DNA of 64,000 bases from Candidatus Latescibacterota bacterium (GCA_965217585.1 OZ244561.1:1728001-1792000); one strand, 5' to 3'. Shown: positions 11,667 to 42,548, counted from the first letter of the stretch. Made by a program: numbers and translations. The notes: a model not told the origin generated them from the sequence alone.

Positions 11667-11686
11667 CCCCTAGGCTGTTATGGTTC

Positions 11687-23824: not shown

Positions 23825-25088
23825 CTACCGCTCCCTGAAGGAGGAGGCTTGTCCCTGGCTCACCCGGCCGCCGCAGCGGTAGGGAGGCCGAAACTATAGG
23901 CTCGTTGACACAGAGCCCTGGCTCGGATGTTCCGAGCCGCGTTGACATCGGCATGAGCTTGGTGTCCACACCGACGACAACAAAACCGAGATTGAGATAA
24001 GCGATTAGCCCGCTCGACATGTTCGCATTGAGAACACATCTGACTGGTATGCTTGGGAGAAACCCTCTTGACCCGCACGCCAGCGGCCTGCGCCTTGTAG
24101 GCGATAAACTGCCTCAGTTGGTCAAAAGCCCATCCCGTCATGCGGGCACGTTGAGGCTTGCGAAACCGGATGCTATCCCGGATGCCCTTGAGGTCTTCGA
24201 GGGCAATACCCCGGATAGTGTCTTTAGCCTGCTCAACGATACGCTTGGAGAGGACGTGGTTGGTATTTCTGCGGAAGTTGGCTTCTTTGAGCGCGCGCCG
24301 ATGCAGCTTCTTGCGGATGCGCTTGCGCGCCCGATGGTTCTTGGCCAGGTCAGCCGCCGATTGAAGGCGCTGGCGCAGCGTCTGGCACGTAAGGCGCACC
24401 CGCTCCACGTCGGCACCCGAGTGCCGTTGACCATCCGAGTCCGTGGCAAGGTTGGCTACGCCCAAGTCGATGCCGAGGAAGTCGTCAGGATCGACCGGCG
24501 GCGCGTCGTCGTATTCGACCGTAGCCATCAAGAACCACTTCCCATCGCGCCGACGCACCAACTCGGCATACCGCTTGACGTGGCCGAGCTGGCTGGCTTG
24601 GTAGTCGCCCATGACCATCGGCACGACGATACGACCCTGGAGCGTAGAAAGGGAGACCTCTTTGAAGTCTCTGTAGTGGAGCAGATGCCGGTCATAGGGC
24701 ATCGACGCCAGCGGGCGAAACGACACCTTTTTGCTCTTGTCGCGCTTGTAGGCCGCTGCCACTTGGGCAAAGGTCAGACAGGCCATTTGCGCGGGCAGGT
24801 CAAACTGCTGGCGCACTTTATAATAGTATAGCTTATGCAGGGCATAACGATTGGCCAGCTTGCGCTCAAAGGCTCGCTCGGCGACCCAATCACACGCGGC
24901 ATTAACGCTGCATGGTCGCTAAGAAAGCCGTGGCCTGATCGGCAGAGGGGAGCAGTTGGATTTGAATAACTCGCTTCATACAGACCAATACAGTTCGTAT
25001 GGAAAACCTTGTCAACCCGTAAAAACCAAAGGGAGAATCGGCGTTTCCTCTGTCGCCTGAAGACGACAGTCTCCACGCCAAAATTTCT
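23820..25088 (-). mobile_element. IS200/IS605-family element, tnpB only (IS1341-like), non-autonomous
   Basis: Minus-strand right end AAGCCTCCTCCTTCAGGGAGCGGTAGTTGAC ends at 23820; left-end hairpin CTGTCG..CGACAG at 25050-25069; upstream flank TTCAT; no tnpA. Confidence 0.85.
23860..24979 (-). pseudogene. tnpB: RNA-guided endonuclease TnpB, frameshifted near 24904
   Basis: ATG 24979 gives MKRVIQIQLLP...MQR then TAA; a shifted frame resumes NAACDW...; RuvC GIDLG, ALEDL, HADVNAARNI and Zn ribbon CSQC/CRRC intact. Confidence 0.88.
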
Positions 25089-25302
25089 ATGAATCGCTTA
25101 TCGTCGCCACCGAATCGTTCGGGGATGCTCAGAGTGCCGTTGTGAAGGAATTGGTGCGTTTCAGGGATCAGCCTGGTACTTCCGCCACCCGTCCTCGGTA
25201 GAGCGCTACTGCGGACGGGTGGATGCCCGAACCTGCGCCATTACCCGAGCCAGATTCCCCTTGCCTGGGAACGAGAGAATGCCGTTTATTCTTCCTATCC
25301 GC
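25089..25302 (+). repeat. ~215 bp direct repeat copy 1 (left of island)
   Basis: Aligns end to end with 40143-40355 with scattered substitutions and indels. Confidence 0.9.
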
Positions 25303-25357
25303 TCGTCCACCGTCAAAAAGCAAGCAAAGTAGAGTGAGAGAATCATCGAAGCAGGGA

Positions 25358-27325
25358 ATGAGCGTCGGCGGCGTTGACCCGTCGATTCTTCGAGAGCTGT
25401 CCGGCGTCTACAAGCCGTTCATCAAAGCATTCAAAGAACTCGTCAGCAACGCGTACGACGCCGACGCGGCCGATGTTTCAATCGAGTTTGCGGACGACTT
25501 CACGTCTGCGACCATTGCGGATGACGGCAACGGGATGAGTCCGTTTGAGTTTCGATCCGACTTCACGCGGATCGGTGGCAGTAGCCGCAAATGGTCAAAG
25601 GGAAGGACGCCGAAGAAAAAGCGAAGCCGCATTGGGAACAAGGGCATAGGCTTCCTTGCACTTGCTCGCTACTGCGATCGGATGGTCGTTACTTCGAGCA
25701 GTCCTCGTCAGTTCAAACAAACACATTCGGTCGAAAAGACGTCACCTTACATCGACATAGTCAGCGTTCTCGGAGTACCAATTGACCCGCAGTTACTCAA
25801 TAAAGTGTGCAAGTTCGAGGTAACGCGGTCTGGAAAACGGTCGAAGGTTGCTGCTACCAACTACGAGTTGAACGCGAATACTGGTCGCCTTGCCTTCAAG
25901 AAGGACTTTGGTCCGGTCGACATTGCAATTACGATCGACTGCAACAGGTTGGGTTTCCAAGCGACTCTGGACTTTGATCGCTTGCTCAAGCTTGCGGATT
26001 CTGCCGACCTCGAAAAGCTGTCCGATTTCACGTTGATCGAAGTCCGCGAGCTGCCACGGGAGTCAAAGGACGGGACAAAGGTCGCGATCGAAGGATTGAA
26101 GTCGTTTGTCAAACGCGAACTCAGAGCAGATCGCCGGAAGGGCTTCGTTCGAAATGTTGCGAGTCGCAGCGGGTTTGAACAGGTCGCGTGGCACTTGTCT
26201 CGTTGCACGCCAATCGACTACGCGACGGCACCAGATCAAGCTGAACATCTTGAAGCCCTCTTGGAGGATGCGTCGCCACCGACACTGGATAAACTGACTC
26301 TTCGACACAACAAAACGGAGAGCGCGTTGACTCGTCCTCTCTATCCGTTCGAGCCGGACGCAGCGACGCTGCACAAAGATATGATCACGGAGGTGGACAT
26401 CAACGAGGGTGGTCTTGTCGCAAAGGGGTTTCTTCTCGGCTACGAAAGCGTCGTGTTCCCAGCCGAGTATCGAGGCGTTTCGATACGCGTCCGCGGTGTC
26501 GCCATCGGCGATCCGACGTTTCTCGGTGCAGAATTCCTCCTAACGGGAGCACATAAGGCCGCATTGAGCCAGATCACTGGCGAGATAAATGTGCTGAGCG
26601 GCTTGGACGCGGTGGATGCACTCAATCCAGGTCGCGAGGATTTCTACGAAGAGAGTGGTGATTTTCTCACCCTGCGTCGGTATTTCCGTGGCGACGGTGA
26701 AAAGGTTGGCGGCTATCTCGGCAGGACGATCGACGCCGTCTTGAAACGAAGCCAAGCGAGGTCGTCACTCAACAGCACCTTGAGTCGTGCGGCGTGCATC
26801 CGGCGTGCGATGGACGATGTGTCGGCGGGGATAACACACCTGATGACCGACGGAGGAAAAGAAGCGAGAGCGATACGTGAGATGCTCAAGTCGAACAAAT
26901 CGCACTCGAACGGGTTGGTATCCGCGAAGCCGGCAGGATTTGACATTCCCAACAAAGTGGCCGGAATGGCGGTCAATCAGGCGAAACGCCAGTCGGAAGC
27001 AGCAGCAATAGACTATGAGAAAGCACAGGTGACAATCGACGTATCTCGCCCTGAATGGGATAACGGACTCGTGTTGTTCAAACGGCGGTTCGACGTCATC
27101 CACAAGAAGGGCACGGCGAGTCAACCGATTGCTGAAATCGACTTCAAGGAGGACCGAATTCTCGTCAATTGGGGCCACGCTGCAAAGTCGCAGATGGACG
27201 AGCGGGGATTCCTGCGGACTGCCCTAGCATGGGTACTGGCACGAACAGCAGCCGATGGCGACGCCGATCAGATGATGGAAATGGCCATAACGTTGTTGTC
27301 TTTCACTACGCAGCCCAATGACTAA
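25358..27325 (+). CDS. GHKL (HATPase_c, MORC-like) ATPase 1
   Basis: KELVSNAYDA, IADDGNGMS, IGNKGIGFLA, GTKV; start could be GTG 25334. Confidence 0.85.
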   Translation: MSVGGVDPSILRELSGVYKPFIKAFKELVSNAYDADAADVSIEFADDFTSATIADDGNGMSPFEFRSDFTRIGGSSRKWSKGRTPKKKRSRIGNKGIGFLALARYCDRMVVTSSSPRQFKQTHSVEKTSPYIDIVSVLGVPIDPQLLNKVCKFEVTRSGKRSKVAATNYELNANTGRLAFKKDFGPVDIAITIDCNRLGFQATLDFDRLLKLADSADLEKLSDFTLIEVRELPRESKDGTKVAIEGLKSFVKRELRADRRKGFVRNVASRSGFEQVAWHLSRCTPIDYATAPDQAEHLEALLEDASPPTLDKLTLRHNKTESALTRPLYPFEPDAATLHKDMITEVDINEGGLVAKGFLLGYESVVFPAEYRGVSIRVRGVAIGDPTFLGAEFLLTGAHKAALSQITGEINVLSGLDAVDALNPGREDFYEESGDFLTLRRYFRGDGEKVGGYLGRTIDAVLKRSQARSSLNSTLSRAACIRRAMDDVSAGITHLMTDGGKEARAIREMLKSNKSHSNGLVSAKPAGFDIPNKVAGMAVNQAKRQSEAAAIDYEKAQVTIDVSRPEWDNGLVLFKRRFDVIHKKGTASQPIAEIDFKEDRILVNWGHAAKSQMDERGFLRTALAWVLARTAADGDADQMMEMAITLLSFTTQPND

Positions 27326-28673
27326 GTCTGTCACAGGACAAACACTGCTGAAGCAGGTGCAAAAGGGTGACCGGATACTGCTGGTAAACCCACCAGTGTT
27401 CGAGACACGCTATAGCTGGCTGCGGTGGAATCAACCACTGGATCTACTCAGGGCCGGGGCGTACCTCAAGAGCAGCAAGAAGTGCAGCGTTGAGCTGTTT
27501 GACTTCATGCTACCCAACGACAAAGGCCGCGTTCAAAAGAAAGGGTTGATTGGGCGAGAGCGATACAAAGAAGTTGGTGACGGAGACTTCGCCTACACAT
27601 ATCCGATGTGGAGATTCGGAAAACCATTCGACGCACTCAATGACTGGCTGGTCGAGCGACGTGCCGGCAACAAGCGAGGCGAGCCAACTCAAGTATGGAT
27701 CACTTCGCTGTGCAGCTATTGGTACGCCAGCATTCACCAATTATGCACGAAGCTACGCCTTTGGTTGCCAGACGCGACACTGGCGGTGCTGGGCAACTAC
27801 CCACGATTTATGCTGGACAACGCAGTGGACTTCTGCGATGCCGACCTGGTCGTCAGGACGCCGCTAAATCATGCCGACGAGGGATCATCACTGAAGCTCT
27901 ACGAAGCCGAGAGACCTCCATTCATTTCGGTCCCCCTCAATCCAGCTACAGCCATCCCTGCGATCGAGGAAGCGATCGAACTCGGAGTATTTCGTGTTGC
28001 CGTATTTGATGCCGAGGACGACATTTGCCGCGACAAGGGCAAGCCACTTCGGGAGATCGTCGAGAGCACGAAGAACCTCCATCAACACCTGAGATTTCAT
28101 GCGATATCGGGAGTGCATCCCGAACGGGTCACGCCAGACTTAGCGAAGATATTCGCGGAACGAACGTTCGCGGAGCTGTACTTTGAGCAGTCCAAGGAGG
28201 AATTGGAGTTAGATGAGGCCGCATACGAGCAGTGTCGGGCCTACCTGCTGGAAGCGGGGATTGATCTTTCTGATGGAAACAAAACCTGCGGATTCGTGTG
28301 GATTGGACGCCCGGACGAAACACTGGAAGGGATCGTCCGTCGTAGTTTCACCGTTCTCAGCACGTTTGGGAGTGTCATCCTCAAGCCGTACACGGCCGTG
28401 CCAGGAACAGAGCTATACGAACGGCACAAGGATTATCTGGACGATCTTCCGTACGCTGATCTGTCTCCACACAGATTTCCGTTCGCCGAGTACAACGGAA
28501 TCACCCGGAACGAGTACCATGACCTCTACAGAATGGCGGCGTTCCTCAACGAGAAAGTACGGAACCGGTCGTTCGACTTGTTGAACGGCAGTATGGGTGC
28601 CGAGTTGCTGCGAAACAGTTTACATCGCGAGGTTTGGAATCTTGAAGCGTCCCCCCTCAGCATTATTGATTAG
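27318..28673 (+). CDS. B12-binding radical-SAM-like protein lacking CxxxCxxC
   Basis: ILLVNPP..QPLDLLR, QVWITSLCSYWY, LGNYP; collinear with the downstream paralog but has no Cys triad. Confidence 0.75.
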   Translation: MTKSVTGQTLLKQVQKGDRILLVNPPVFETRYSWLRWNQPLDLLRAGAYLKSSKKCSVELFDFMLPNDKGRVQKKGLIGRERYKEVGDGDFAYTYPMWRFGKPFDALNDWLVERRAGNKRGEPTQVWITSLCSYWYASIHQLCTKLRLWLPDATLAVLGNYPRFMLDNAVDFCDADLVVRTPLNHADEGSSLKLYEAERPPFISVPLNPATAIPAIEEAIELGVFRVAVFDAEDDICRDKGKPLREIVESTKNLHQHLRFHAISGVHPERVTPDLAKIFAERTFAELYFEQSKEELELDEAAYEQCRAYLLEAGIDLSDGNKTCGFVWIGRPDETLEGIVRRSFTVLSTFGSVILKPYTAVPGTELYERHKDYLDDLPYADLSPHRFPFAEYNGITRNEYHDLYRMAAFLNEKVRNRSFDLLNGSMGAELLRNSLHREVWNLEASPLSIID

Positions 28674-30210
28674 TCCGCCTGTCTACGACGTACAGTATTG
28701 GGCGAACTGGAGCATGCCCTATGGCTTGTTGCGTGTCGCATCGTGGCTTCAGGGCAAGGGCTACATGCTGAAGCTGATCGACTGCATGGAGGCCAACAAG
28801 CGGCGAACCGTACCCAAGCAGATGCGGTGTGTACGAAAACTCGGCTCAGCGGACGAACCCTTCACGCCGGGCAAGTGGACGGACTACGAACCGCAGCCCG
28901 ACGAAAAGATCGAGTACGTGTTCGGCATGCCGCTAAAGGAACTGCGGAAACGGCTCGAAGCGATCAAGGTACGTGCAAGGTATGTGCGTGAATCGCTGTT
29001 CGACGAAGTAGCCTTTCCAGAGCCAGATGAAATCTGGATTTCGTCGATCATGACGTACTGGTGGGAAAGCACTCGCGACGTGATCGAAGTCTGTCGGCAA
29101 GTGTTTCCGAAGGCCGTGTTCCGTGTTGGTGGAATCTACCCGACGCTCATTCCCGAACACGCGATGCAGAACCTCGGGTTGAATGATCCACTGCACTTGA
29201 TGGGTCGCGAGTTGGATCCGCTTAATGCCAAGCAGAAGAAGCGTGACATCGTAGTGTCCGCGACGATCCCCGATGCGAATCCACTCCCACTTGCCATTGA
29301 GTTGTACGACAAGGACGGTGCAGGCGACGACGAAGATGGCGAAGAAGGCGAGAAATTGCCCGATTACCTCATCATGACGACGAGTCGTGGCTGTCCTTTC
29401 AAGTGTGCTTACTGTTCGGCCAACGTTTTGAACGAAGGCCGAAAGATCTGGGTTCGGGAATACGAGGTTGCGTACGATGAGATCAAGCGGCGGTTTGAGC
29501 AAGGAATTCGGGAATTCTGTTTCTATGAGGACAACCTGCTGCTCGGCAGAGATAATTTCAAGCAGCTTTGTCGACTGATTCGTGACGACCGCGATTTGAA
29601 AGGGATCGAGTTGCACGCACCAGAGGGCATTGAAGTCCGCCTGCTGCACGAAGACACCGTCCAACTGATGCGTGACGCTGGCTTCAAGAGGTTATACCTG
29701 CCGCTCGAAACCGTCAATGCGAACATGGCCAAATCGTGGCAACGGACGCACACAAACATGGACAAGTTCTTCTACGCGTTGAACAACGCGGAGAAGGCCG
29801 GCTTCAAGTTGCGTTGCCAAGACATCAACTGCTTCATTCTCTTCGGCCTGCCAGACGAAGACCTGCAAGCGGTGTACGACACAATCACATTTGCCTCAAG
29901 CCGAGTCGGCTCTGTGATTCCCATGCTGTTCACTCCAGTGCCAAGCACGCCATTGTTCGAGCAGTACCGACCGTACATCGAAGACAAAGGTTTCGATCTA
30001 CACCACTTGAATGGAAAGCTGCTTCCTTTCCTCGATTACAATCGCCACAAGTACAAGTCGCTATCAGTACACGACTACAACTCAATCGAAGGGTTGATGT
30101 GGAGACTCAATGCGAAAGTTCGCAACGCGAGTTTCAATCTCGGCGGCGAGGGTCGAGTAGCGAGGGCGTTCCGAGAAGTGTACAACGCGATGGAACCGAT
30201 GTCTGTCTGA
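28642..30210 (+). CDS. Cobalamin-binding radical SAM enzyme (class B-like)
   Basis: GAGG then TTG 28642; LLISPP..MPYGLLR, GGIYPT, TSRGCPFKCAYC, FYEDN, FILFGLP. Confidence 0.9.
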   Translation: MKRPPSALLISPPVYDVQYWANWSMPYGLLRVASWLQGKGYMLKLIDCMEANKRRTVPKQMRCVRKLGSADEPFTPGKWTDYEPQPDEKIEYVFGMPLKELRKRLEAIKVRARYVRESLFDEVAFPEPDEIWISSIMTYWWESTRDVIEVCRQVFPKAVFRVGGIYPTLIPEHAMQNLGLNDPLHLMGRELDPLNAKQKKRDIVVSATIPDANPLPLAIELYDKDGAGDDEDGEEGEKLPDYLIMTTSRGCPFKCAYCSANVLNEGRKIWVREYEVAYDEIKRRFEQGIREFCFYEDNLLLGRDNFKQLCRLIRDDRDLKGIELHAPEGIEVRLLHEDTVQLMRDAGFKRLYLPLETVNANMAKSWQRTHTNMDKFFYALNNAEKAGFKLRCQDINCFILFGLPDEDLQAVYDTITFASSRVGSVIPMLFTPVPSTPLFEQYRPYIEDKGFDLHHLNGKLLPFLDYNRHKYKSLSVHDYNSIEGLMWRLNAKVRNASFNLGGEGRVARAFREVYNAMEPMSV

Positions 30211-30216
30211 TTTGCG

Positions 30217-31068
30217 TCAAGTTGGTCGTTCGACCTGCGGCGGATAGAGCTCGGTCCGCGGGATCATCCTGTCCATTCGACGCAGGGGATAGTTGATTAT
30301 CTCTGCGAGAGAATCTGCTTGCGTCAGATCGGGTAGAGCTCCCGGTTGCTTCACGAATTCGGCATAGAAGTGAACGAGATGGTGCTCTCCATCCGTGCCT
30401 GTTGTGGAACTACTATAAACTGTCGGTATTTCAAAGTGCACAGCGAAACCATATGACATGCCTACTTGCCAGCAGAGAAAAGGAAAGCACAGTTTGAGTC
30501 GCGTTGCCTGGTTTCGCTGGTGAGCTTCACAGCACTCCTCAATACCTTTCCAGCCGCGCAAAGCCTCCGGAACGTTGTCTATGAACTGGGAGTATTCCTT
30601 AGCACCCTTGTCGCGGACGTTAAACGTTGCGATCAAGATGAATGAGTCGCTTCGTTGCGATTGCTGGTGAATAAGGCTGCGAATTGCATCGACACATCGA
30701 GAGTTACCCTCTGCGGTTGGATACACGAATCCACCGTAGAAATCCAAATTGTAAAGGTCATAGACATCGTTCGTATTTACGAGGAACTCCAGAACATTGT
30801 CTTGAACGAAGTGTATGGGCAAATCGAGTGATCTACGATCCCATTCTATACGCATGTCCGACAGGACATCTTCCTCCATTTCCACCGCACACACAGACCG
30901 TAACTCGTCATGCCACGCCGAAATATCCAAAAACTCCACACTTGGCATGCCGCAGTATGTCAGGCCCAGTTGAATCTTGTGCAAGGATCGAAATGCCCTG
31001 ATACTCCGAGCGTCACGCCGACGTAGCTCACGCTTGGCTTGACTGTCTGGAAACCGATTGAATGGCAT
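30217..31068 (-). CDS. SAM-methyltransferase-fold protein A
   Basis: YCGMPS.EFLD, CAVE, YNLDFYG; same motif order as 33333-34169; abuts GHKL2 stop. Confidence 0.55.
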   Translation of the reverse strand: MPFNRFPDSQAKRELRRRDARSIRAFRSLHKIQLGLTYCGMPSVEFLDISAWHDELRSVCAVEMEEDVLSDMRIEWDRRSLDLPIHFVQDNVLEFLVNTNDVYDLYNLDFYGGFVYPTAEGNSRCVDAIRSLIHQQSQRSDSFILIATFNVRDKGAKEYSQFIDNVPEALRGWKGIEECCEAHQRNQATRLKLCFPFLCWQVGMSYGFAVHFEIPTVYSSSTTGTDGEHHLVHFYAEFVKQPGALPDLTQADSLAEIINYPLRRMDRMIPRTELYPPQVERPT

Positions 31069-32672
31069 TACTCTATCAATCCATGTTGGCGAAAGACCTG
31101 ATAGATCCCTTCGCAGATGTCTGTGATAGACTCGTCATCAGCCGGCAGCTTGTTTTCAACCACGTGGACGATGTCAGAAAGCAGTTCTTCAGCGTCGAAC
31201 TCGAGGTGTTCTTCATCACGACTCGGTTGTGCGTCATCGTCCACATCGCCTCCATCGTCATCCGGCTTATCTTCTTCAGTGGCTTCGACATCATCTTTAG
31301 TGTCCTCATCAACCTCGTCTTCAGCTTCCTGTTCCAGCAGCTCCGTGAGTGCGGTAATAAGTCGGTTTCGACGGTCTTTTAAATCCTGCGTTGCTAACAG
31401 TGTACGAAGACGACGCTTTACCTTCTCTTGCGGAGTCCTGCCCCGCGTCAACGTACGCTGTTGCTCAAGCTTCTCCAGTTGATCCGAAATCTTATCGGGA
31501 GTAATTTCATCTGGGGCGTCGACGATTTCTTGTGCGAAGTCTAGTTCCTTCTTCTTCGTATTGAACTGTGACAGTGCTCGGCTGTCCGCGATGCGGTCCT
31601 CATAGAAGCCACGAATCGCTTCGATAGCTCGGCGAGCCATTACATCAAGCTCAAGTGCTGTGCGAGGAGTATCTGGTACGATGGCAGGATTCGTGATGTG
31701 GACCGCACCTACGTGCCAGTGGAGATGTGTGCGGCTGGACAGCTTGAGCTTGTTTACAATCCCGAATGCCGACCCATCCTCATCGTCGTATATCCCAATC
31801 GGCCCAACTGCAAAGTTGCGAATGCGAAGGCGGAAACTGCGATATTGAAAGTCCCGGGGCGTAATCGATCGATGGTCAGAACAATACCAGCAGCGTGCAT
31901 ACTCCTCGCCATTTGCCGTGAGCGTCTTAAAGCAAGGTTTTTCGAGGTCTGCCGGAAACTGTTGGAAGACTTCCCCGCCTTCGACGAGGATCGGAAACTC
32001 TTGATAGCCTTCAATCCCATGTAGGTGTTGGCTGAGCACTGTCGCATGTTCAAACTGCGGGTCAATCTTGCAGGGAAGATTCTGGCTTACAATCCGTTTT
32101 AGCTCCTCAGCATCAGTCAACTTGAGGTAGTCGCCTTGAAGTCCAAGAAGCTTGACGATCGTGTAGTGGTCGGTCTCCGGGGCTCCATCTGCCTCGATGC
32201 GAAAGCGATCGTCAAGTAACTCTTTGATGTTAATGTCTTCATGTACATGTTCGATGATTTTCGCGAAGTCAATCGCAAGACGGTAGCGCTTCCCATCGCC
32301 TTCCTTGGTCGTTTCAATCTCCAACCTGTCACACGCCTGAAACCCGGCCCAAATCCCGATCCCGCGAAATCCAGTCATGTTCCCGTCAAGTTCCGACTTC
32401 GGTGATACGGCGATTTTCTTACACGCCTTTATCGCCGCTTCATCCATCCCGATTCCGTTGTCTTGGATCGATATCGTAAAGTTGTCCACAACGCGAACGT
32501 TGATTGTTGGGTGCTCTGGCAGCGTGTTTAACTCCTGATAGGAGTCACACGCGTTCTGTACGTACTCCCGGAGCACGCCCTCATGTGTGTACATGCCGCG
32601 TGCGAGATTCGCGAGCAAACGGGCACCAATGTCGTCGATGGTGAATTCGTCATCTAGTTGTGTCCAAGGCAT
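31068..32672 (-). CDS. GHKL (HSP90/MORC-like) ATPase 2
   Basis: LREYVQNACDS, IQDNGIGMD, GFRGIG; acidic C-terminal linker; AAAGGAG RBS. Confidence 0.88.
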   Translation of the reverse strand: MPWTQLDDEFTIDDIGARLLANLARGMYTHEGVLREYVQNACDSYQELNTLPEHPTINVRVVDNFTISIQDNGIGMDEAAIKACKKIAVSPKSELDGNMTGFRGIGIWAGFQACDRLEIETTKEGDGKRYRLAIDFAKIIEHVHEDINIKELLDDRFRIEADGAPETDHYTIVKLLGLQGDYLKLTDAEELKRIVSQNLPCKIDPQFEHATVLSQHLHGIEGYQEFPILVEGGEVFQQFPADLEKPCFKTLTANGEEYARCWYCSDHRSITPRDFQYRSFRLRIRNFAVGPIGIYDDEDGSAFGIVNKLKLSSRTHLHWHVGAVHITNPAIVPDTPRTALELDVMARRAIEAIRGFYEDRIADSRALSQFNTKKKELDFAQEIVDAPDEITPDKISDQLEKLEQQRTLTRGRTPQEKVKRRLRTLLATQDLKDRRNRLITALTELLEQEAEDEVDEDTKDDVEATEEDKPDDDGGDVDDDAQPSRDEEHLEFDAEELLSDIVHVVENKLPADDESITDICEGIYQVFRQHGLIE

Positions 32673-33115
32673 CTGGAACTCTCTCCTTTAGCAAACGCGG
32701 CGGCGAAACGCCGTAGCAGGCACAGGGCATGGCGTTAATGACTTTAAGGCGTGCGAGTGGCGTCAATTCCGCTGGATCGCCTTTGCAAAAGGGCGTCAGC
32801 ATCACATCAGAACAGCCCAGTTCGTTAAGTCGCTCGCGAAACCACATGAAAATCTCCGCCTGACGGTGAGTAGGCAGTCGAATCTTCTTTATGTGTTCCT
32901 TACTTCCCTTGGCTTGACGAGCGAGTTCACTTAGTGATATCGTCTCTTCGGGTGCAATCTCACGGGCAAATGCTTCGGCCGCTTCTGGGTATCGTTTCGC
33001 GATGATGGATGCCGTTGTCGGCGCGAATAGTAGGATGTCCAACGTAAGTCGCCAACTAGCTGTGCCAAGTCGCTCTCGGCTCAATTGAAGTAAGTCGGGA
33101 TACTCTTCGATTTGC
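32650..33115 (-). pseudogene. 3' fragment of an SPL-like radical SAM gene (diverged copy of ~35870-36283)
   Basis: QIEEYPDLLQLSRERLG...MPCACYG versus QIEEYPDFLRLCRDRLG...MPCACYG; no N-terminus. Confidence 0.9.
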
Positions 33116-33327
33116 ACTATCTGAACGGCAAGTTACTTCCGTTTCTCGACTACAATCATCGCAAGTACACGTCACTTTCGGTTCACAACTACAACTCCAT
33201 TGAGGGGCTGATGTGGCGATTGAATGCGAAAGTTCGCAATGCCAGCTTCAATCTTGGTGGCGAGGGCAGAGTTGCCCAAGCATTTCGCGAGGTATTCCTC
33301 TATCATGCAGAACTGGTCGCAACGTAG
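33106..33327 (+). pseudogene. 3' fragment of a B12-radical SAM gene (diverged copy of 29992-30181)
   Basis: FDLHYLNGKLLPFLDYN...GGEGRVAQAFREV versus FDLHHLNGKLLPFLDYN...GGEGRVARAFREV. Confidence 0.92.
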
Positions 33328-33332
33328 CAATG

Positions 33333-34169
33333 TCAGTCGAAGATGTTTGGGACTTCCGGTTCCGGCATCATCGCGAATGCGTGCGGAAACTCGTCAAAGT
33401 GAACGTCATCTAGCTTGCGAGAGCTGCCGTCCTTTCGCTCGACTCGGTAGAGCCATAGTCCCATGGGACTTCGACTGTCACGGTACTTGAATTTTCCAAG
33501 CAATTGTGGACTGGGTATTTCTTTCTGACCGAGTTTACGGAGACTACTCTCTCGTCGGCTGAAGCTAATCGCGACGAGTAGGTCAACGTGGTTTCTCCCG
33601 CGAAATTCCTTGTCGAGTCGAGACGGCTGGAAAAACAGTCGGAACGATCGGTCGTACTTCCCCATAATGTTTTGATTGTGAATCACTCGCGGTGTGAGGC
33701 ACGACGTTACTAACAAAAAATCTCCAATTCGCATGAGCCCAGAGTCCAACAGATACTCCAAGTCATTCGCTTCTTTGTCTTTGAATGTGCCCGTATAGTC
33801 GAGAAAGTAAACAAAGGTGCAGTCTGATCGGATTGCTTCCAGCTTCTCTAGTGCCGAGGGAAACTGAGCGGGGATAATGTCTATTGTGATTGTCTTGACC
33901 TTCGATAGTGTTGTGGCGACAGGGCACTCTTGCGAGCGCTGGGCCAAGTCTGTGTCATGTTCATAAGATATGATTCCTATCTCGTGGTCCCGCACATTGA
34001 AGACGCCGACTAGGTCCATCGCGTCATAAAGATCTTCGCCTCCGAACGTGACGTAAGCGAACTTTTGCGGCAGGCCAAAATCCTTGCGAATTAATCGGAA
34101 ACACTGGTTCAACGCCAATCGCTTCTGGATGCGATATGGCTGTGGCACATCGCCATAGGTTGCTGTCAC
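33333..34169 (-). CDS. SAM-methyltransferase-fold protein B (Methyltransf_35-like)
   Basis: YVTFGGEDLYD, ISYE, YFLDYTG, FKYRDS.SPM. Confidence 0.6.
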   Translation of the reverse strand: MTATYGDVPQPYRIQKRLALNQCFRLIRKDFGLPQKFAYVTFGGEDLYDAMDLVGVFNVRDHEIGIISYEHDTDLAQRSQECPVATTLSKVKTITIDIIPAQFPSALEKLEAIRSDCTFVYFLDYTGTFKDKEANDLEYLLDSGLMRIGDFLLVTSCLTPRVIHNQNIMGKYDRSFRLFFQPSRLDKEFRGRNHVDLLVAISFSRRESSLRKLGQKEIPSPQLLGKFKYRDSRSPMGLWLYRVERKDGSSRKLDDVHFDEFPHAFAMMPEPEVPNIFD

Positions 34170-34178
34170 AGAAAGACC

Positions 34179-35855
34179 CTACTTTAAGGATTCGATCTTC
34201 TTGAGGAATTGATCGCGAATGGTGTATGAGAGTTTGCCTATGTCACCATCACATTTGAAGACCTTCAAAGCCTTCTCCAACGTCGGAGCAGGAACGGAGA
34301 GCGCGATTCCCGACAACAAGCAGTCGCGAATCGCGCTCGCCATCTCCTCTTCACAGTTAACTGCAAATCGCTCCAGTAATTCGTCGAACTCGACTGGAGT
34401 AAAAGTCAGCGTCACGACTCGCTCATCATCCTCTTCCGTGACCGCCATCTCTGCCTTGGATTCACTGGGTTCTCTCTTGCGGGCATCACCGTTGGTTTCC
34501 GACGTTTTTTTCGGCCGTGAACCAAACGACCATTTCGGCAATGACGAGGTTCCCGGCTGGCTCACGTTGAGCTTTACTTCCGAGACAGACGCCGCACTCT
34601 CGAGAGGTTTTGCCTCTAGTTCGCTTTGACGAAGACCAGTGTCATTCGCAAACTTGCGTCCGATGTCCGCGTACGCTTTGACGATGGGGCGAAGCGTCTG
34701 CCTCAGCCAAATGCTTACTGGGTGATCATGCATGTACTCACGTTTGTGTGTATCCCATGGGATTGCGAAACTGTGCCCAGTGATGATTAGCTCACCTCGG
34801 AACAAGTCGTGCCCCTTGGTTCCCGTCGCGAGCCCCGACGTACCAAATCCGAATTCCGTCTTAAGGAACTTCTCGATCAGACGACCGTTGCCGTATACAT
34901 CCACGCCCCAATCTGGCTGAAGTCCCTCTTTCTTGCTGGGCAGTTTCCGCGTCAAACCACACTTGAAGCCGAAATCAAGCTTGATGTCATTTCCAGACTG
35001 GAGGAAGTCCTTGAATGTGTGTGAAAACGTATAGACACGCGGGCCAGCGTCCCTTGGGTTGGACCAATCAACATCCATTGCAGGTTCAACCTCAACACCG
35101 TTGACCGTGATGACGATTCGGCGACTCACAATTTCTCCAGCCAGCAGCGGTCGGTAAATGATCCCGACACGTTTGATCAACTCGTCGATCTCATCTTGGG
35201 TTGGCGGTGCAAACAACTTGTAGAAATAGATGTGTGTGTTGCCGGCTCCGATCGGTTTCGCACTCCCGTCCATCGTTTCCCAATTTGGCTTCAATTCCCA
35301 CTTTTCTGGAACCTCGCTTGTGGCGGAAAACGTGGCCGCTGTACATGAAACGATCTTGGCACCATCCGTTAATCGGAAAATACCTTTCTTTGCACCCATC
35401 CCAAACGAACCAATTGTGTTTTTTGAGAAGTCTCGATTTGTTGTCTCACCGGGAATGAACACTTTGTAGACATCGCTCTCGTCCACGCCACCTGCATTGT
35501 CAAAGAATGTTCCCGTAAGCAATTCGAGATCGTAATCAATGTCGATCTTGAGGTTACGCTTGGCTCCTTCAGACCTCCATTTGTCGATCGAGTTGTCGAT
35601 CAATTCAAAGTTGGCTTCATAGAAGGAAAGGTCCCGACGGGCACTGACGACAAGGTCTTTTGGCGGATTGTGTGGGATCGCACGCGGCTCGACGGTCTGC
35701 TGTGGCAAGCTCCCGAAGAACTCACGAACGTGCTGAAAGAAATCCATCGCCTTGTCAAAACGGCCCGCAAGTTCATCGTCGTCCAAGTTCTCTAACAGCG
35801 TCACTTGCTCGTCAGTAGCAAGACGCTCCCAAGCCCGTCTTTCCTTCTTAGCCAT
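34179..35855 (-). CDS. GHKL (MORC-like) ATPase 3
   Basis: FELIDNSID, FDNAGGVD, IGSFGMGAK, DVYGNGRLI; ATG 35855 overlaps the upstream stop. Confidence 0.88.
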   Translation of the reverse strand: MAKKERRAWERLATDEQVTLLENLDDDELAGRFDKAMDFFQHVREFFGSLPQQTVEPRAIPHNPPKDLVVSARRDLSFYEANFELIDNSIDKWRSEGAKRNLKIDIDYDLELLTGTFFDNAGGVDESDVYKVFIPGETTNRDFSKNTIGSFGMGAKKGIFRLTDGAKIVSCTAATFSATSEVPEKWELKPNWETMDGSAKPIGAGNTHIYFYKLFAPPTQDEIDELIKRVGIIYRPLLAGEIVSRRIVITVNGVEVEPAMDVDWSNPRDAGPRVYTFSHTFKDFLQSGNDIKLDFGFKCGLTRKLPSKKEGLQPDWGVDVYGNGRLIEKFLKTEFGFGTSGLATGTKGHDLFRGELIITGHSFAIPWDTHKREYMHDHPVSIWLRQTLRPIVKAYADIGRKFANDTGLRQSELEAKPLESAASVSEVKLNVSQPGTSSLPKWSFGSRPKKTSETNGDARKREPSESKAEMAVTEEDDERVVTLTFTPVEFDELLERFAVNCEEEMASAIRDCLLSGIALSVPAPTLEKALKVFKCDGDIGKLSYTIRDQFLKKIESLK

Positions 35856-37245
35856 GATTGGTCCTTTGGGGTGGAGTCGTTCCGTAGCATGCACACGGCA
35901 TTGCACTGATTATTTTGAGTCTTGCCAGCGGCGTAAGTTCGTTCGGGTCACCTTTGCACGGCGTCAGCATAACGTCTGAACAGCCCAATTCGTTTAGTTG
36001 TTCGCGAAACCACATGAAAATCTCAGCTTGACGATCAGCCGGGGGACGGATCTTTTTTACGTGTTTCTTGCTTCCCTTGGCTTGGCGAGCGAGTTCTCGC
36101 AGCGACGTGGTTCCGTCAGGTGCAATCTCACGTGCGAATACCTCAGCCGCCTCCGGGTATCGCGTCGCGATGATGGACGCCGTTGTTGGCGTGAATCGGA
36201 GGATGTCGAGTGTCAATCGCCAACCAGTTGTTCCGAGTCGGTCGCGGCACAAGCGGAGAAAATCAGGATACTCTTCAATCTGCTGCCAAACGGCTGTCAT
36301 GCGAATGACCGGATCGATAGCTCCGGCTTCCACTGCCCATGCGAGACTTTCGAGCAATTCTTCGGCGGGCGACCCGTTAGGAGCCACCCAGCGGCGAACT
36401 GACTCCGGCATGAGCGAAATCCCCACTTGAACCTTGCCGTTGAATCTCAGGTACTGCGGATATCGAATCTTGGTGAGGAAGAACGGTGTGACTTCGGCTT
36501 CGTTGCAGGCGTCGATGACGAACTGAATCATTGAGCCGTTTCCATCCTCGTCAGAAAACCATTCGTCGTACTCAACGAGACCGCTGGTTTCGCCAAAGTT
36601 GATTGGGTATTCGTACTGAAACCACTTCTGCCGTAGCTCAGCAGCTAGGTCTTCCCAGTTCAGAGCCACGTCCATGCCGTCCGTGTATGGCATGTTGAGG
36701 TAGCAGTACGGGCATTCCACCGGACAAAAGCCGACGGCGACCGATGCCTTCATGAATCCTTTCGTGATCGTCCCGTCCTTGTTCCGTACCATCGGACGAG
36801 TCCATTCGCCACACGTCGTTCCTTGCCCGCCAAGAAACGGGCTGACGAATTTCGCCTTTCCCGTGCCACCGCGATTCGTGAGATACAGGCTCTGCCTCTT
36901 CGCGGTAAATGGGTCCGCGTCCACAATGAACTCGTTTCTGAATAACTCAACCGCATTTCCGACCGTTTGATTGTGTCCGCCTTGTCGTTTGACGATGAAT
37001 CGTGCGAGGCCCGCAGCCGGCCCAGCTTGAAACCGTTCCGCAGCATCAGCTTCGTCATCATCGTGGACGGCGAGCATCACCAGAGGCGGATCGATACCCC
37101 ACTGTTTGCGAGTCTGAAGTACACGCAGGACACGGGAAGCCTGTGACTTGTTGCAGAGCAGCGGACCAGCGACCGTGATCAAGCGAATCCGATTGAGGTT
37201 CTCACGGACGATTTTCCGCGTTTGATCAGAGGCTACTGTTTCCAT
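35848..37245 (-). CDS. Spore-photoproduct-lyase-like radical SAM protein
   Basis: GFCPVECPYCYLN (CxxxCxxC followed by YL), GETS, FFLTK, ISL; C-terminal CAC. Confidence 0.75.
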   Translation of the reverse strand: METVASDQTRKIVRENLNRIRLITVAGPLLCNKSQASRVLRVLQTRKQWGIDPPLVMLAVHDDDEADAAERFQAGPAAGLARFIVKRQGGHNQTVGNAVELFRNEFIVDADPFTAKRQSLYLTNRGGTGKAKFVSPFLGGQGTTCGEWTRPMVRNKDGTITKGFMKASVAVGFCPVECPYCYLNMPYTDGMDVALNWEDLAAELRQKWFQYEYPINFGETSGLVEYDEWFSDEDGNGSMIQFVIDACNEAEVTPFFLTKIRYPQYLRFNGKVQVGISLMPESVRRWVAPNGSPAEELLESLAWAVEAGAIDPVIRMTAVWQQIEEYPDFLRLCRDRLGTTGWRLTLDILRFTPTTASIIATRYPEAAEVFAREIAPDGTTSLRELARQAKGSKKHVKKIRPPADRQAEIFMWFREQLNELGCSDVMLTPCKGDPNELTPLARLKIISAMPCACYGTTPPQRTNHG

Positions 37246-38603
37246 CGCTTCGCCCTTTCCTCAAAACTCTCGACGCGGGTGACGCGGCCGATATTCTCCG
37301 TGACAACATAAGCCCAGCCACGAGGCAATTTCGTCACGACCTCGTAGATGTCGCTGAACGAGTGAGCATTGCGAATCTTCCGGTGTAGTTGCCGCGAGAC
37401 GCTGCTGTTGTCGTCCCCGACCTGAAACACGAGCTTCGTCGCCGTGTTTGCGAACGCAACAGAACTGAAGTCGTCAGGCTGTTGCGACGCAAGAACCACG
37501 CCGACCCCAAACTTTCGGCCTTCGCGAAGCAGCTTCTCGGCCGGTGACCCATTATCGAAAGACAACTTGTGGGCTTCATCCATCACTACAAAGCACCGAA
37601 GCGGTCCCGGACCGAGCGATTCGACATACCCGATGAAGTTCCACAACAGGAACTCAGTCACGGCTTTCTCAAGCGAGTATTCTAGCCCTTTCAGCTTCAC
37701 CACAAATACTCTTCCGTCTGAACGCAGCATATCGCCCCACTGCATGTCCTGTCCGTTTGAACGGAACGTATTGAACACAAACACGGTCGAGATGTGTGAC
37801 GCAACATTCGCAGCGAGTCGCCGATTCGGATGCCCCGGATCATCGGCATAACTTTCAAGCTGATGCTGAAGGTTGAGGAAAGGCGGAGCTTCTTGTCGTT
37901 CCTCGGCATCAGACCCCGGCAGCACATCAAGGACCGCTTGCCGAAGCATCGCGTGCTGTTGGATGCCGATACCTGAATAGATCCGCTTGAACGTGTCTGC
38001 GACTCGTTGGGCGACGCTCACCGGCCCATGTAAGTCAAACGGGTATCCTTGAAGTGGGTTGATGTTGACGCCGTTACGTCCTGCGTCCAGCTCCTCCGGC
38101 TCGCCAAACTGCAGGAACTCTTGTGGTGAATTGTCGAGCGAGAATCCCTGAGAGTAATCGAAAACGATCGATGGAATCCTGCGTTGTGCCAACTCTGTCA
38201 GCAGGCAGGAGACCGCATAGGTCTTACCAAAGCCGCTTTCACCCAGAACGAGCACGTGGGGATTCGCTGACCCACTTGCTGGATCAGGATTCCAGTACAC
38301 CGGCTCTTCGCTTTCCGCGTCAGCCCCAATCAGCACGGGATCGAACGAGGCGTCCGCGCCGTCCAAGTTGCGAGTTTCCTTGAGGATCGCGTCGACTCGT
38401 TCGCGGCTCTGGCGGATCGGTTCTTCGTTGCTGGCACGCGAGGATAGCTCATAAGTACCTATTGTGACGTGAGCGTTGATCGCGGACACCTGAGCCGGCG
38501 TTACGCCGACTCGTGCCGCGATCGTCTTGCGGTCATGGCCCTGCGATAGGAGGTCCAGAACCTCTTCTCGTTGAGACTTACTTATCCTCTTCGCCATTCC
38601 CAT
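37233..38603 (-). CDS. HTH plus HerA/FtsK-like (DUF87) ATPase
   Basis: N-terminal HTH (RKTIAARVGVTPAQVS); Walker A GESGFGKT; Walker B VVMDEAH; REGRKFG; LASQ. Confidence 0.85.
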   Translation of the reverse strand: MGMAKRISKSQREEVLDLLSQGHDRKTIAARVGVTPAQVSAINAHVTIGTYELSSRASNEEPIRQSRERVDAILKETRNLDGADASFDPVLIGADAESEEPVYWNPDPASGSANPHVLVLGESGFGKTYAVSCLLTELAQRRIPSIVFDYSQGFSLDNSPQEFLQFGEPEELDAGRNGVNINPLQGYPFDLHGPVSVAQRVADTFKRIYSGIGIQQHAMLRQAVLDVLPGSDAEERQEAPPFLNLQHQLESYADDPGHPNRRLAANVASHISTVFVFNTFRSNGQDMQWGDMLRSDGRVFVVKLKGLEYSLEKAVTEFLLWNFIGYVESLGPGPLRCFVVMDEAHKLSFDNGSPAEKLLREGRKFGVGVVLASQQPDDFSSVAFANTATKLVFQVGDDNSSVSRQLHRKIRNAHSFSDIYEVVTKLPRGWAYVVTENIGRVTRVESFEERAKRWKQ

Positions 38604-38967
38604 TCGTTTTCAGCTCCTCAGTCTTCTCCTGGATCAGAGCATTGATTATGGCGGTCCTATCTTGAATCACGCCTGCTGCTTCCAATCGTCGGAAATCATC
38701 CCATAGCTCGCGGTCGATCCGCAGCGTGACCGACACACGATCGCAGTGGCAAGAACCCTTCGGCCGCCCGACCCGGCGATCAGGCATGCTCTCCCACGCC
38801 TTTCGAGCAGCGAGGCTCAGATTGGTAAAATCGTCTGGCGTGGTTTCAAACGTATTGCCGGCAACCTCAGTAAGAATCGTCCGTTTCGTAACTCGGACGA
38901 CGACTCCACGTTCATTCGCGTGGGGAGGGATCTTTAAGCGTACCTTGTCCCCGACTTGAGTCTGCAT
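38578..38967 (-). CDS. Small regulator: KOW/SH3-like plus BrnA-like ribbon-helix-helix
   Basis: QVGDKVR...GVVV; RRVGRPKGS...VSVTLRIDRELWDDF. Confidence 0.65.
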   Translation of the reverse strand: MQTQVGDKVRLKIPPHANERGVVVRVTKRTILTEVAGNTFETTPDDFTNLSLAARKAWESMPDRRVGRPKGSCHCDRVSVTLRIDRELWDDFRRLEAAGVIQDRTAIINALIQEKTEELKTNGNGEEDK

Positions 38968-38997
38968 GATTGACTGGCTATCGCATGATCTAATAAA

Positions 38998-39037
38998 TTG
39001 CAATAATTAAATTACAACTTGCAACCGGGGTCGTCAA
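38998..39037 (-). promoter_or_regulatory. Candidate sigma70 promoter with overlapping palindromic operator
   Basis: TTGACG (39037-39032), 17 bp spacer, TAATTT (39014-39009); imperfect IR TTGCAAT-N6-ATTACAA at 38998-39017. Confidence 0.5.
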
Positions 39038-39077
39038 GGGGTAGTCAAGTAAGGAGTTGGCGATAGGGGAACACGAC

Positions 39078-39132
39078 ATGAGCTACAAGCCGAAGACACT
39101 CTTTCGACCGACTGATCGAAGACATCAATGGT
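39078..39132 (+). pseudogene. Possible 5' remnant of a DUF262/GmrSD-type gene
   Basis: GGGGA RBS; reads MSYKPKTLFRLIEDING once a 4-bp duplication (cgac-cgac) is removed, then breaks off. Confidence 0.35.
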
Positions 39133-39309
39133 ACCGCTCACGGCGCAGAGAGCGAATCGCGGAGGAGGTCAGGCGGCGAACTCGAACTGTAGCTGAGGTG
39201 GGGCACCACCAGCAGCCCTACGCGAATCAGCGAAACGGGGTACAACTGGCAACCTCTCAGGCCGGTTCATAAACACACCGACCAGCCCCCAATACCCAAC
39301 CCCCGCTTC

Positions 39310-40047: not shown

Positions 40048-40142
40048 TCTTGTTCCTCCTCAAGGTATAGGAAAAATAAGGCACCGCTATCGGTACTATG
40101 CAATTCGCTGAAAACGTACGCAAGGGTCCAGCAGGGTCCCTG

Positions 40143-42548
<2,406 letters not shown>

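Follow-up and report, generated by a model that had tools for sequence, protein, structure and literature searches.

Does a gene island that joins three radical-SAM-type proteins, three GHKL ATPases, a DNA-pump-like ATPase and methyltransferase-like proteins constitute a single system, and if so, on what substrate is it likely to act? Such an island of about 14 kb is present in the window, by which we mean the whole 64,000-nt stretch of DNA from Candidatus Latescibacterota bacterium that was analysed (GCA_965217585.1 OZ244561.1:1728001-1792000). A sequence-only reading had described two convergent operons at positions 25358-38967 and had proposed a restriction-modification-like system that installs or senses a non-canonical, radical-derived DNA mark. 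In our effort to assess this proposal, we considered in turn the gene content of the locus, the predicted features of each protein, the distribution of the gene set and the sequences that border it.

Gene content of the island

The observation was confirmed, as every gene that had been listed is present with the motifs and orientations described for it. The elements of the island and its flanks are as follows.

23860-24816, minus strand: TnpB (IS605 OrfB / Cas12f-like TNB), 318 aa; a flanking gene, not part of the system
25089-25302: left boundary repeat with a hairpin core, a direct repeat of 40143-40355
25358-27325, plus strand: A, GHKL ATPase (HATPase_c_3); the ORF opens at 25223, but the likely start is 25358
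27318-28673, plus strand: B, paralog of C without an Fe-S cluster motif (putative pseudo-enzyme partner)
28597-30210, plus strand: C, radical SAM protein with an N-terminal B12-binding-like domain; start uncertain
30217-31068, minus strand: K, predicted class-I SAM-methyltransferase-fold protein, related to PP_RS20740
31068-32672, minus strand: J, GHKL ATPase with an acidic C-terminal tail, partner of K
32650-33117, minus strand: I, 3' fragment of a second F allele (scar), which keeps the native F/J junction
33106-33327, plus strand: C', last 73 codons plus stop of a second C allele (scar), 5 nt from the stop of H
33333-34169, minus strand: H, methyltransferase-fold-like protein, a divergent branch of Methyltransf_35 and distant homolog of K
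34179-35906, minus strand: G, GHKL ATPase, partner of H; likely start near 35855
35848-37245, minus strand: F, radical SAM protein with a predicted spore-photoproduct-lyase fold, an N-terminal alpha/beta domain of about 120 aa and a Cys-rich C-terminus
37233-38603, minus strand: E, N-terminal HTH plus HerA/FtsK-type P-loop ATPase, closest to the C-terminal motor domain of DndH
38578-39003, minus strand: D, putative small DNA-binding regulator; likely start 38967
39131-39204: right boundary, a short repeat element that recurs in congeners
40143-40355: right copy of the 214-nt direct repeat, beyond the resident PhyH gene (39310-40047)

Neighbouring genes overlap or lie 9 nt or less apart, the stop of J overlaps the start of K by 1 nt, and the two operons converge with 6 nt between the stops of C and K. 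The ends proposed for the island (25358 and 38967) fit the starts that orthologs support. Specifically, the first 27 codons of the long ORF of A lie in the boundary repeat and orthologs align from the inner Met, whereas the start of D was supported by an alignment of six orthologs. The GC content is 0.51-0.56 inside the island, compared with 0.60-0.65 in most of the rest of the window.

Two gene fragments between the two GHKL/methyltransferase-like pairs had been missed. Fragment I is 81% identical in amino acid sequence to F residues 322-460 and 77-79% identical in nucleotide sequence to 35882-36283, and C' is 77-79% identical in nucleotide sequence to 29992-30179. These fragments are scars of cassette stacking by recombination, through which the second GHKL/methyltransferase-like pair of this window was added.

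Predicted features of the encoded proteins

In Pfam searches, A, J and G hit HATPase_c_3 (E values of 2e-15, 3.5e-12 and 1.7e-5, the last at 25.3 bits against a cut-off of 25), and the N-box, G1 and G2 motifs of Bergerat-fold ATPases can be read in the sequences. A also scored 63.5 bits against NF050001, the BbrUII/HgiDII-type restriction enzyme family, but on residues 71-162 only and far below the 550-bit cut-off, and therefore it is not a full-length match to that family. Prediction of a complex between J and K gave weak support, with a score of 0.44 against 0.01 for the best of three controls. That mark was reached by 58 of 80 solved complexes and by 2 of 110 mismatched pairs; at 0.60 or under it was reached by only 7 of those 80 solved complexes and by both mismatches that passed. 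The runs agree in at least 27% of contacts, and the pLDDT of the partner is at least 79.

Protein C carries the cluster motif CPFKCAYC and hits Radical_SAM (PF04055, 3e-17), and C266, C270 and C273 are invariant in 20 sequences. The match of its N-terminal, Rossmann-like domain to the B12-binding family PF02310 (4.4e-4) reached only 20.5 bits against a cut-off of 32.1, and PF02310 is precomputed on 4 of the 120 listed relatives. The best NCBIfam hits are P-/C-methylase-type B12 radical SAM proteins such as PhpK and HpnJ, all far below the family cut-offs, and the closest solved relative by sequence is AprD4 (7e-8), which is not known to require cobalamin. The 'B12' designation given in the sequence-only reading is thus a domain-level resemblance only. 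Protein B is a full-length paralog of C (23% identity) with no Pfam family, and it lacks the whole CxxxCxxC loop in all three orthologs aligned.

Protein F carries CPVECPYC. C174, C178, C181 and Y182, as well as C145, C247, C430, C451 and C453, are invariant in 16 sequences, which provides the CxxxCxxCY arrangement of spore photoproduct lyase (SPL; SplB/COG1533; PDB 4fhc, 4rh0). When the AlphaFold model (pLDDT 88) was searched with Foldseek, SPL entries occupied ranks 1-6 (E 6.5e-10 to 6.2e-9; TM 0.71-0.73 over the target, 0.72 for the first), and the next hit was at 9.7e-5. This likeness is by fold only, as identity is 15-16%, a profile search of PDB sequences gave E values of 0.41-0.53, and the Pfam Radical_SAM hit is only 0.023. 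In that weak, non-significant HMMER alignment, the position of the catalytic H-donor cysteine of SPL (C140/C141) pairs with invariant E219, although other invariant Cys residues (C145, C247) exist. The extra N-terminal domain, the Cys-rich C-terminus and the location of the gene in an operon with ATPases on a mobile island also distinguish F from SPL.

Protein E hits DUF87/HerA (2e-7) and HTH_7 (6e-4) in Pfam and has Walker A and B motifs. Its best PADLOC match is DndH (3.2e-42), in which residues 82-386 align to profile positions 1335-1650 of 1715, followed by mad8 (2.3e-16). Protein D has a beta-rich N-terminus, a GRPKG (AT-hook-like) segment and an RHH-like C-terminus. The RHH and AT-hook readings are inferred from the sequence pattern, as BrnA_antitoxin (RHH) was hit only at E 0.047.

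The model of K (pLDDT 94) is a class-I SAM methyltransferase fold, with at least 500 Foldseek matches at E up to 0.001 and SAM methyltransferases as the top hits. The closest folds are RNA and small-molecule methyltransferases, with modest TM scores of 0.38-0.58, so DNA is not indicated as a substrate for K. K scored 27 bits against a cut-off of 200 for NF047698 (PP_RS20740), yet 50 of 51 aligned relatives touch this family at E up to 0.001. For H, the assignment rests only on profile likeness. H scored 19.4 bits (7e-4) against a cut-off of 27 for Methyltransf_35 (PF20553), 8 of 21 relatives hit PF20553 (best 1.3e-8), and a profile-profile comparison with the K family gave a probability of 76.5% and E 2.2e-5 over 113 columns. 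H also has the same nearest ESM Atlas clusters as K. Conserved YxG..G, acidic beta-2 end and N-L-D-Y-x-G-G motifs are consistent with SAM binding, which like methyl transfer is an inference from sequence.

Distribution and modular organization

The sequence-only reading had set co-conservation of the genes, and the absence of a full match to a described system, as conditions for its proposal. Intact full islands with the order D-E-F-(G-H)-J-K|C-B-A were found four times: in the window, in the same-genus genome G141 (contigs L001 and L035), in L002 (= G084), and in locus L020 at only 42-71% amino acid identity. In addition, decayed copies exist (L022, L028). E lies directly upstream of F in 11 loci (L001, L002, L012, L013, L015, L016, L019, L020, L021, L022 and L028), but in none of the six loci whose F is only 47-64% identical (L003, L005, L006, L008, L023 and L024). 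A GHKL gene follows F in the window and in 10 loci, and a K-family profile finds a methyltransferase-like gene behind every cassette GHKL that is complete in the DNA retrieved (1e-38 in genomes G095, G094 and G090, and 5e-11 in L019).

Rather than one fixed 11-gene operon pair, these loci represent a modular family. Its hub is one or two fast-diverging pairs of a GHKL and a class-I methyltransferase-fold protein, to which two arms (A-B-C and D-E-F) are joined, either of which can be missing. The A-B-C arm with a GHKL/methyltransferase-like pair occurs without D-E-F within 10 kb in G095, G094 and G090, where K remnants also reside beside C, and D-E-F with a GHKL occurs without A-B-C in L015 and L019.

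Compared with L020, C (68%) and F (71%) are the most conserved genes, followed by E (56%), A (54%), G (51%), H (48%), B (46%), D (46%), K (43%) and J (42%). Orthologs of A are 83-94% identical in five genomes. In G141, A-F are 94-97% identical, J is 72% and K 77% identical, and the G/H slot holds a pair that is only 28% identical. Fragments of F and C occur in G141 as well as in the window.

Because the arms occur apart, they may not act as one machine. Alternatively, two or three small systems (D-E-F with a GHKL/methyltransferase-like pair, such a pair alone, and A-B-C) could merely sit side by side in a hotspot and act independently. The larger size of the C family (976 relatives at E up to 1e-10, compared with 70 proteins in the F family) and the location of the island in a repeat-punctuated region that collects unrelated cargo are in keeping with this view. 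However, the convergent junction between C and a methyltransferase-like gene, with 5-6 nt between stops, is kept with three different such genes, namely K, H (scar) and Hx (scar in G141). Moreover, the whole set travels together in L020, and a 14,185-nt contig from another study covers 25238-39130 and stops at both borders. We therefore consider independent systems possible but unlikely.

The island is rare and patchily distributed. F was found in 1 of 41 genomes (its own genome plus 40 relatives), and C in 6 of 168 genomes of the phylum, at 92-97% identity across two families. Source names place relatives of C and H, at 49-74% identity, in MAGs labelled Pirellulales, Planctomycetes, Deltaproteobacteria and Pyrinomonadaceae.

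Relationship to known systems

No named system in PADLOC-DB 2.0 or NCBIfam matched the island, and no paper found in our literature searches describes it. Only E and the N-terminal GHKL domains touch PADLOC models, whereas B, C, F, G, H and K touch none. No nuclease or other effector domain was found in any protein in the Pfam, PADLOC and NCBIfam searches, in agreement with the earlier remark that no clear nuclease is visible.

The DndFGH/SspFGH restriction modules of phosphorothioate systems share a multi-ATPase, DNA-directed logic with the island. However, E leaves the roughly 1,300 N-terminal positions of the DndH profile unmatched, no other protein of the island matched a Dnd model, and Dnd chemistry does not use classical radical SAM enzymes (PMC10853773). 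The island is likewise not a match to MADS, which comprises a multi-gene mad set, as only mad8 was hit, by E, and no other protein of the island hit a mad model. MORC/paraMORC and Tiamat-type GHL ATPases in restriction-modification-like loci (bioRxiv 10.64898/2026.09.30.754977) resemble the island in their HATPase_c_3 / sacsin-like N-terminal ATPase, in neighbourhoods with methyltransferases and in modular partner swapping. The island differs from them in that no PD-(D/E)xK or other nuclease domain was found and the partners are radical SAM proteins and small methyltransferase-fold proteins without a recognizable target-recognition domain. From class B (cobalamin-dependent) radical SAM enzymes and AprD4, C differs in being paired with a cluster-less paralog and a GHKL ATPase.

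Radical SAM chemistry is used against phages by prokaryotic viperins, which act on free nucleotides, and by Ophion, which consists of radical SAM, PHP and PRTase proteins (bioRxiv 10.1101/2025.09.30.679545). Neither has GHKL, HerA or methyltransferase-like partners, and PADLOC, which holds viperin models, found no family for F or C.

Possible function of the island

With moderate confidence, we favour a horizontally mobile, modular conflict-type (defence-like) system that most likely works on DNA. In this view, ATP-driven clamps (the GHKL ATPases, which are MORC/Hsp90-like) and a translocase (E) would load SAM-using enzymes onto DNA. The slowly evolving radical SAM proteins C and F would perform the chemistry, either writing a carbon-centred mark or damaging or repairing a base, and B and C probably form a heterodimer. 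The fast-evolving, swappable GHKL/methyltransferase-like pairs would set target choice or self-protection. Our analysis establishes the gene content, folds, motifs, co-conservation, cassette exchange with scars and mobility of the island. By contrast, DNA as the substrate, the writing or reading of any mark, restriction of phages, cobalamin use and methylation by C, methyl transfer by K and H, and the division of labour are inferences, made without experimental data and without any direct sign of DNA modification. The earlier interpretation is therefore supported in part: the gene set is co-conserved, mobile, patchy and without a named counterpart in the sources searched, whereas a radical-derived DNA mark remains conjecture.

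Defence-type neighbours were found at some loci, including GmrSD_N (5e-31, L012), a DNA N6/N4 methylase (9e-56, L019) and weak Schlafen/AlbA_2, AbiEi and NACHT hits. Most neighbours of the island and of the hotspot, however, are metabolic or unknown rather than defence genes.

SPL is a DNA-acting enzyme, but one of repair and not of defence. The island could be devoted to DNA repair or maintenance, with the SPL-like protein reversing a radical-type base lesion and MutL-like GHKL ATPases and a HerA-type motor assisting. The SPL fold is the best match for F, the GHKL domain of A hits MutL and PMS1 weakly, and E has HerA-type hits. Nevertheless, the swappable, fast-diverging cassettes, the decayed copies, the patchy distribution and the low GC content fit accessory conflict genes better than repair, and the pairing of the SPL H-donor position with an invariant Glu, in the weak alignment noted above, also speaks against this reading, which we regard as doubtful.

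Equally doubtful is a small-molecule pathway that yields a modified nucleotide or metabolite, for example an antiviral chain terminator as viperins produce. B12-domain radical SAM enzymes and O-methyltransferase-like proteins are typical of biosynthetic clusters, the best hits of C are AprD4 and PhpK-type enzymes, and the predicted fold of K is close to small-molecule and RNA methyltransferases. However, no scaffold enzyme, precursor peptide or transporter is evident in the island in the DNA retrieved, and the three GHKL ATPases, the HTH-HerA/DndH-like motor and the RHH/AT-hook-like protein point to DNA.

A more far-reaching possibility, which we consider unlikely although it is not excluded, is a new class of DNA modification/restriction-like immunity. 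Here C (with its putative pseudo-enzyme partner) and F would write, and read or reverse, a carbon-centred DNA mark, with loading by GHKL clamps and a DndH-like motor and specificity set by the exchangeable cassettes. This would be the first cellular DNA mark made by radical SAM chemistry. If the radical SAM enzymes do act on DNA, radical chemistry (C-methylation, or C-C bond making or breaking at unactivated carbons) would be added to the known repertoire of bacterial self/non-self marking, and a function would be given to a branch of the widespread but unexplained SPL-like (COG1533) enzymes outside spore formers. Even without this, the locus clearly shows natural cassette exchange, in which GHKL/methyltransferase-like pairs are swapped between two conserved radical SAM genes and leave datable scars, and it defines a testable role for the uncharacterized PP_RS20740/Methyltransf_35-like proteins.

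Borders and flanking sequences

The island lies between repeats in a variable region. The left boundary repeat and its right copy are 87% identical over 218 nt, and copies punctuate the PhyH-katG variable region in congeners. At the right boundary, the short element at 39131-39204 gave multiple matches (query positions 82-155) in other genomes. Contig X5 stops matching at 39130, and loose ends cluster at 39131 and 39204. The flanking TnpB was identified by hits to PF07282 (5.8e-23) and PF01385 (1.5e-12), and a 402-aa version lies beside gene A in G141.

Gene organization of the island

The region holds two convergent strings of genes in which neighbouring genes overlap or lie 9 nt or less apart, and the stop codons of genes C and K are separated by 6 nt. 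The genes are as follows.

A (plus strand), GHKL ATPase (HATPase_c_3, 2e-15)
B (plus strand), 451 aa, no Pfam family
C (plus strand), Radical_SAM (3e-17), motif CPFKCAYC, with a weak B12-binding hit of 4.4e-4 that is below the cut-off
D (minus strand), small regulator
E (minus strand), N-terminal HTH plus a HerA/FtsK-type ATPase
F (minus strand), 465 aa, motif CPVECPYC
G (minus strand), GHKL ATPase
H (minus strand), partner of G (described below)
J (minus strand), GHKL ATPase
K (minus strand), partner of J (described below)

B is a full-length paralog of C with 23% identity, and its cluster-binding loop is deleted in all three orthologs that were aligned. The GC content of the island is 0.51-0.56, compared with 0.60-0.65 in most of the rest of the window. 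The description given in a sequence-only reading of this DNA is therefore correct, and the end coordinates of that reading match the starts that are supported by orthologs. J ends in a long, strongly acidic Asp/Glu-rich tail (31068-31300, the C-terminus of J), and G also has a low-complexity charged segment before its C-terminal domain. When A and J were searched against PDB sequences with phmmer, only the N-terminal GHKL domain was matched, which gives no clue to the C-terminal halves of these proteins.

A scan for promoters and terminators found fewer sites than were found in shuffled sequences, a search with Rfam found nothing in the window, and no inverted repeats that would suggest an invertible switch were observed. 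No RNA data set was listed among the sequencing runs that carry this DNA.

Predicted folds of F, H and K

F has no significant Pfam hit (Radical_SAM, 0.023), and a profile made from 16 of its 70 relatives finds spore photoproduct lyase (SPL) among PDB sequences only at E 0.4. The AlphaFold model of F is good, however (pLDDT 88.4, pTM 0.89), and matches SPL at Foldseek ranks 1-6 (E 6.5e-10 to 6.2e-9, TM 0.71-0.73 over the lyase), while the next hit is at 9.7e-5. To this predicted fold F adds an alpha/beta N-terminal domain of about 120 aa and five further invariant cysteines.

The model of K was built with 51 of the 136 representatives found, which were picked as the near-full-length ones. It scores a pLDDT of 94.4 and is a class-I SAM methyltransferase (MT) fold. 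Of these 51 K relatives, 50 touch the NCBIfam family PP_RS20740 (NF047698) below its cut-off. This family matched none of 14 control genomes. H is a divergent branch of Methyltransf_35, as 8 of 21 relatives hit this family, with a best value of 1.3e-8. H is also distantly related to K: shallow profiles of three sequences showed no likeness between the two, but deeper profiles aligned by hhalign gave a probability of 76.5% and E 2.2e-5 over 113 columns that cover the SAM-binding motifs. Both proteins have the same nearest ESM Atlas clusters. Profile searches of PDB sequences were not significant for either family, with no hits for H and the YrrM O-methyltransferase at E 0.19 for K.

Gene fragments record stacking of a second cassette

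Two gene fragments that the sequence-only reading had missed lie between H and J.

32650-33117 (minus strand), the last 140 or so codons of another F allele
33106-33327 (plus strand), the last 73 codons plus stop of another C allele

The first is 81% identical in amino acids and 77-79% identical in nucleotides to the 3′ end of F, and still carries the native overlap with the start of J. The second ends 5 nt from the stop of H. So a donor island of the form ...F-G-H|C'... recombined into a recipient of the form ...F-J-K|C-B-A, which stacked a second cassette and left scars.

A contig of 14,185 nt from a metagenome of another study covers 25238-39130 with 471 differing letters and 8 gaps and stops matching at both borders, and contigs of two further studies bridge the scar. 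The stacked layout is therefore not an assembly artefact of this genome.

Co-conservation and modularity

Scans of genomes and of metagenomes with the F profile gave 9 and 17 loci. Locus L002 (the same as genome G084) carries D-E-F-J-K|C-B-A at 81-94% amino acid identity, whereas locus L020 carries D-E-F-G-H-J-K|C-B-A at only 42-71% identity and without scars. G141, a genome of the same genus as the window, carries the island on two contigs (L001 and L035), with the same scar-type layout but with a pair in the G/H slot that is only 28% identical to G.

E lies upstream of F in 11 loci, and D is there too where the sequence reaches. E is not upstream of F in loci L007 and L009, where F itself is broken or truncated, and it is upstream of F in none of the 6 loci whose F is 47-64% identical, where the neighbours are SerRS, a HAD hydrolase or unknowns. 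In two of these loci, both from Chloroflexia MAGs, the distant F homolog (47-49% identity; L006 8275-9750 and L008 2972-4417) lies directly downstream of a seryl-tRNA synthetase gene, which is a quite different context for this SPL-like family. A GHKL gene that is G-like, J-like or A-like follows F in the window and in 10 loci.

The two radical SAM arms also occur apart. Three genomes (G095, G094 and G090) carry A-B-C, a K remnant, and then a co-directional GHKL gene (620-627 aa) and an MT-like gene (335-341 aa, K profile 1e-38), with no D-E-F within 10 kb. In the locus of G090, a 2162-aa protein with a weak NACHT/AAA_16 hit lies nearby (L039 2271-8759). Conversely, loci L015 and L019 have D-E-F without A-B-C, and loci L022 and L028 are decayed copies. 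The system is thus modular, in that GHKL/MT pairs form the hub and the two radical SAM arms are optional.

Evolutionary pattern and distribution

C and F are the most conserved genes of the island (68% and 71% in L020), and the GHKL/MT pairs and B are the least conserved (42-51%). In G141 the arms are 94-97% identical, J is 72% and K is 77% identical, and the G/H slot is replaced. This is the pattern expected for conserved catalytic engines with diversifying specificity or sensor modules.

F was found in 1 of 41 genomes (the source genome and 40 relatives, 24 of them of the same genus). C was found in 6 of 168 genomes of the phylum, at 92-97% identity across two families, and in 0 of 401 sampled genomes of another phylum, that of genome G168. 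C was also not found in the genomes that hold distant F relatives (G168, G169 and G170). C relatives were not found in IMG/VR viral contigs or in plasmids, and a tblastn search of phage and plasmid records found no K relatives, although the ESM Atlas lists phage-rich clusters near K and H.

Source names place C and H relatives at 49-74% identity in MAGs labelled from several phyla, and the link between the lists of H and C relatives rests only on a weak proxy, equal lengths of the longest contigs in 12 cases. MAG labels are not fully reliable, as NCBI titles call L001 Latescibacterota and L002 Gemmatimonadota, yet a genome taxonomy search places both in the phylum of the window (same genus and same class, respectively).

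Comparison with known systems and proposed mechanism

PADLOC-DB 2.0 has models only for E and for the GHKL heads. E matches the C-terminal motor part of DndH at 3.2e-42 and mad8 at 2.3e-16, as well as HerA, whereas B, C, F, G, H and K hit nothing. NCBIfam gives only sub-threshold hits. Literature searches found no description of this gene set, supplementary files aside; the papers examined include a reappraisal of Dnd (PMC10853773), the Tiamat preprint and the Ophion preprint. Ophion is radical SAM + PHP + PRTase, which is a different system.

Each ATPase is paired with a SAM-using protein: A with B/C, G with H, J with K, and E with F. The features that point to DNA are the HTH and the DndH-like motor in E, the RHH-like and GRPKG segments inferred in D, the MORC/Hsp90-type GHKLs, and the predicted SPL fold. 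We therefore propose that ATP-driven clamps and a translocase load SAM-dependent enzymes on DNA, where C and F would do radical chemistry and the variable GHKL/MT pairs would set target choice or self-protection.

Prediction of a J-K complex gave only weak support for one of these pairings. The score was 0.44, against 0.01 for the best of 3 controls. That mark was reached by 58 of 80 solved complexes and 2 of 110 mismatches, but at 0.60 or under it was reached by only 7 of the 80 and by both mismatches. Run agreement was at least 27% and the pLDDT of the partner was at least 79.

No nuclease was found in the island, and no sign that DNA is modified was obtained. Our analysis establishes a real, rare, mobile and modular gene system that the libraries and papers searched do not describe, whereas its function, including DNA as the substrate, radical chemistry by C and F, and the roles of the ATPases and GHKL/MT pairs, is inferred from context only. 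We hold with moderate confidence that it is a DNA-directed conflict system. The alternatives are that independent systems are merely neighbours, that this is a repair island, or that it encodes a small-molecule pathway. The interpretation offered by the sequence-only reading, a restriction-modification-like system that installs or senses a radical-derived DNA mark, is only partly supported, and we consider it unlikely on present evidence that the system writes such a mark.

Genomic setting

The island sits between a probably truncated TnpB gene and a resident PhyH gene next to katG. The flanking features are as follows.

23860-24816 (minus strand), TnpB (IS605 OrfB), 318 aa, probably truncated
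25089-25302, left copy of a 214-nt direct repeat
39131-39204, short repeat
39310-40047, PhyH-type Fe(II)/2OG dioxygenase gene
40143-40355, right copy of the 214-nt direct repeat (87% identity)

In five congeners the PhyH-katG interval holds 2-14 kb of different cargo cut up by copies of these repeats. The cargo is mostly metabolic or unknown, with a Prok-E2_C/ThiF gene and a DUF4365 gene. The short repeats (25089-25302, 39131-39204 and 40062-40355 in the window, and loci L051-L055) form a family with a hairpin core that cuts this interval into cargo cassettes of 2-14 kb that differ between species of the genus. In metagenome contigs the boundary bins reach a summed depth of 190-265, against 2-25 inside the island. 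This may be a repeat-mediated integration hotspot.

A TnpB gene lies next to gene A both here and in G141 (402 aa; L035 7405-8613), and no TnpA was seen. A PhyH-type gene lies beside the system in 5 genomes of two genera (including L036 10873-11697, L038 8556-9368 and L039 8874-9644), but not in L002 or among the two upstream ORFs of L020 that were scanned. In the genus of the window it is a resident gene, found in 29 of 30 congeners. It is more likely a hotspot marker than a component of the system. Two further patches of low GC content, at 9000-12000 and 50000-53000 (0.49 and 0.45, against about 0.63), suggest other acquired DNA in this window.
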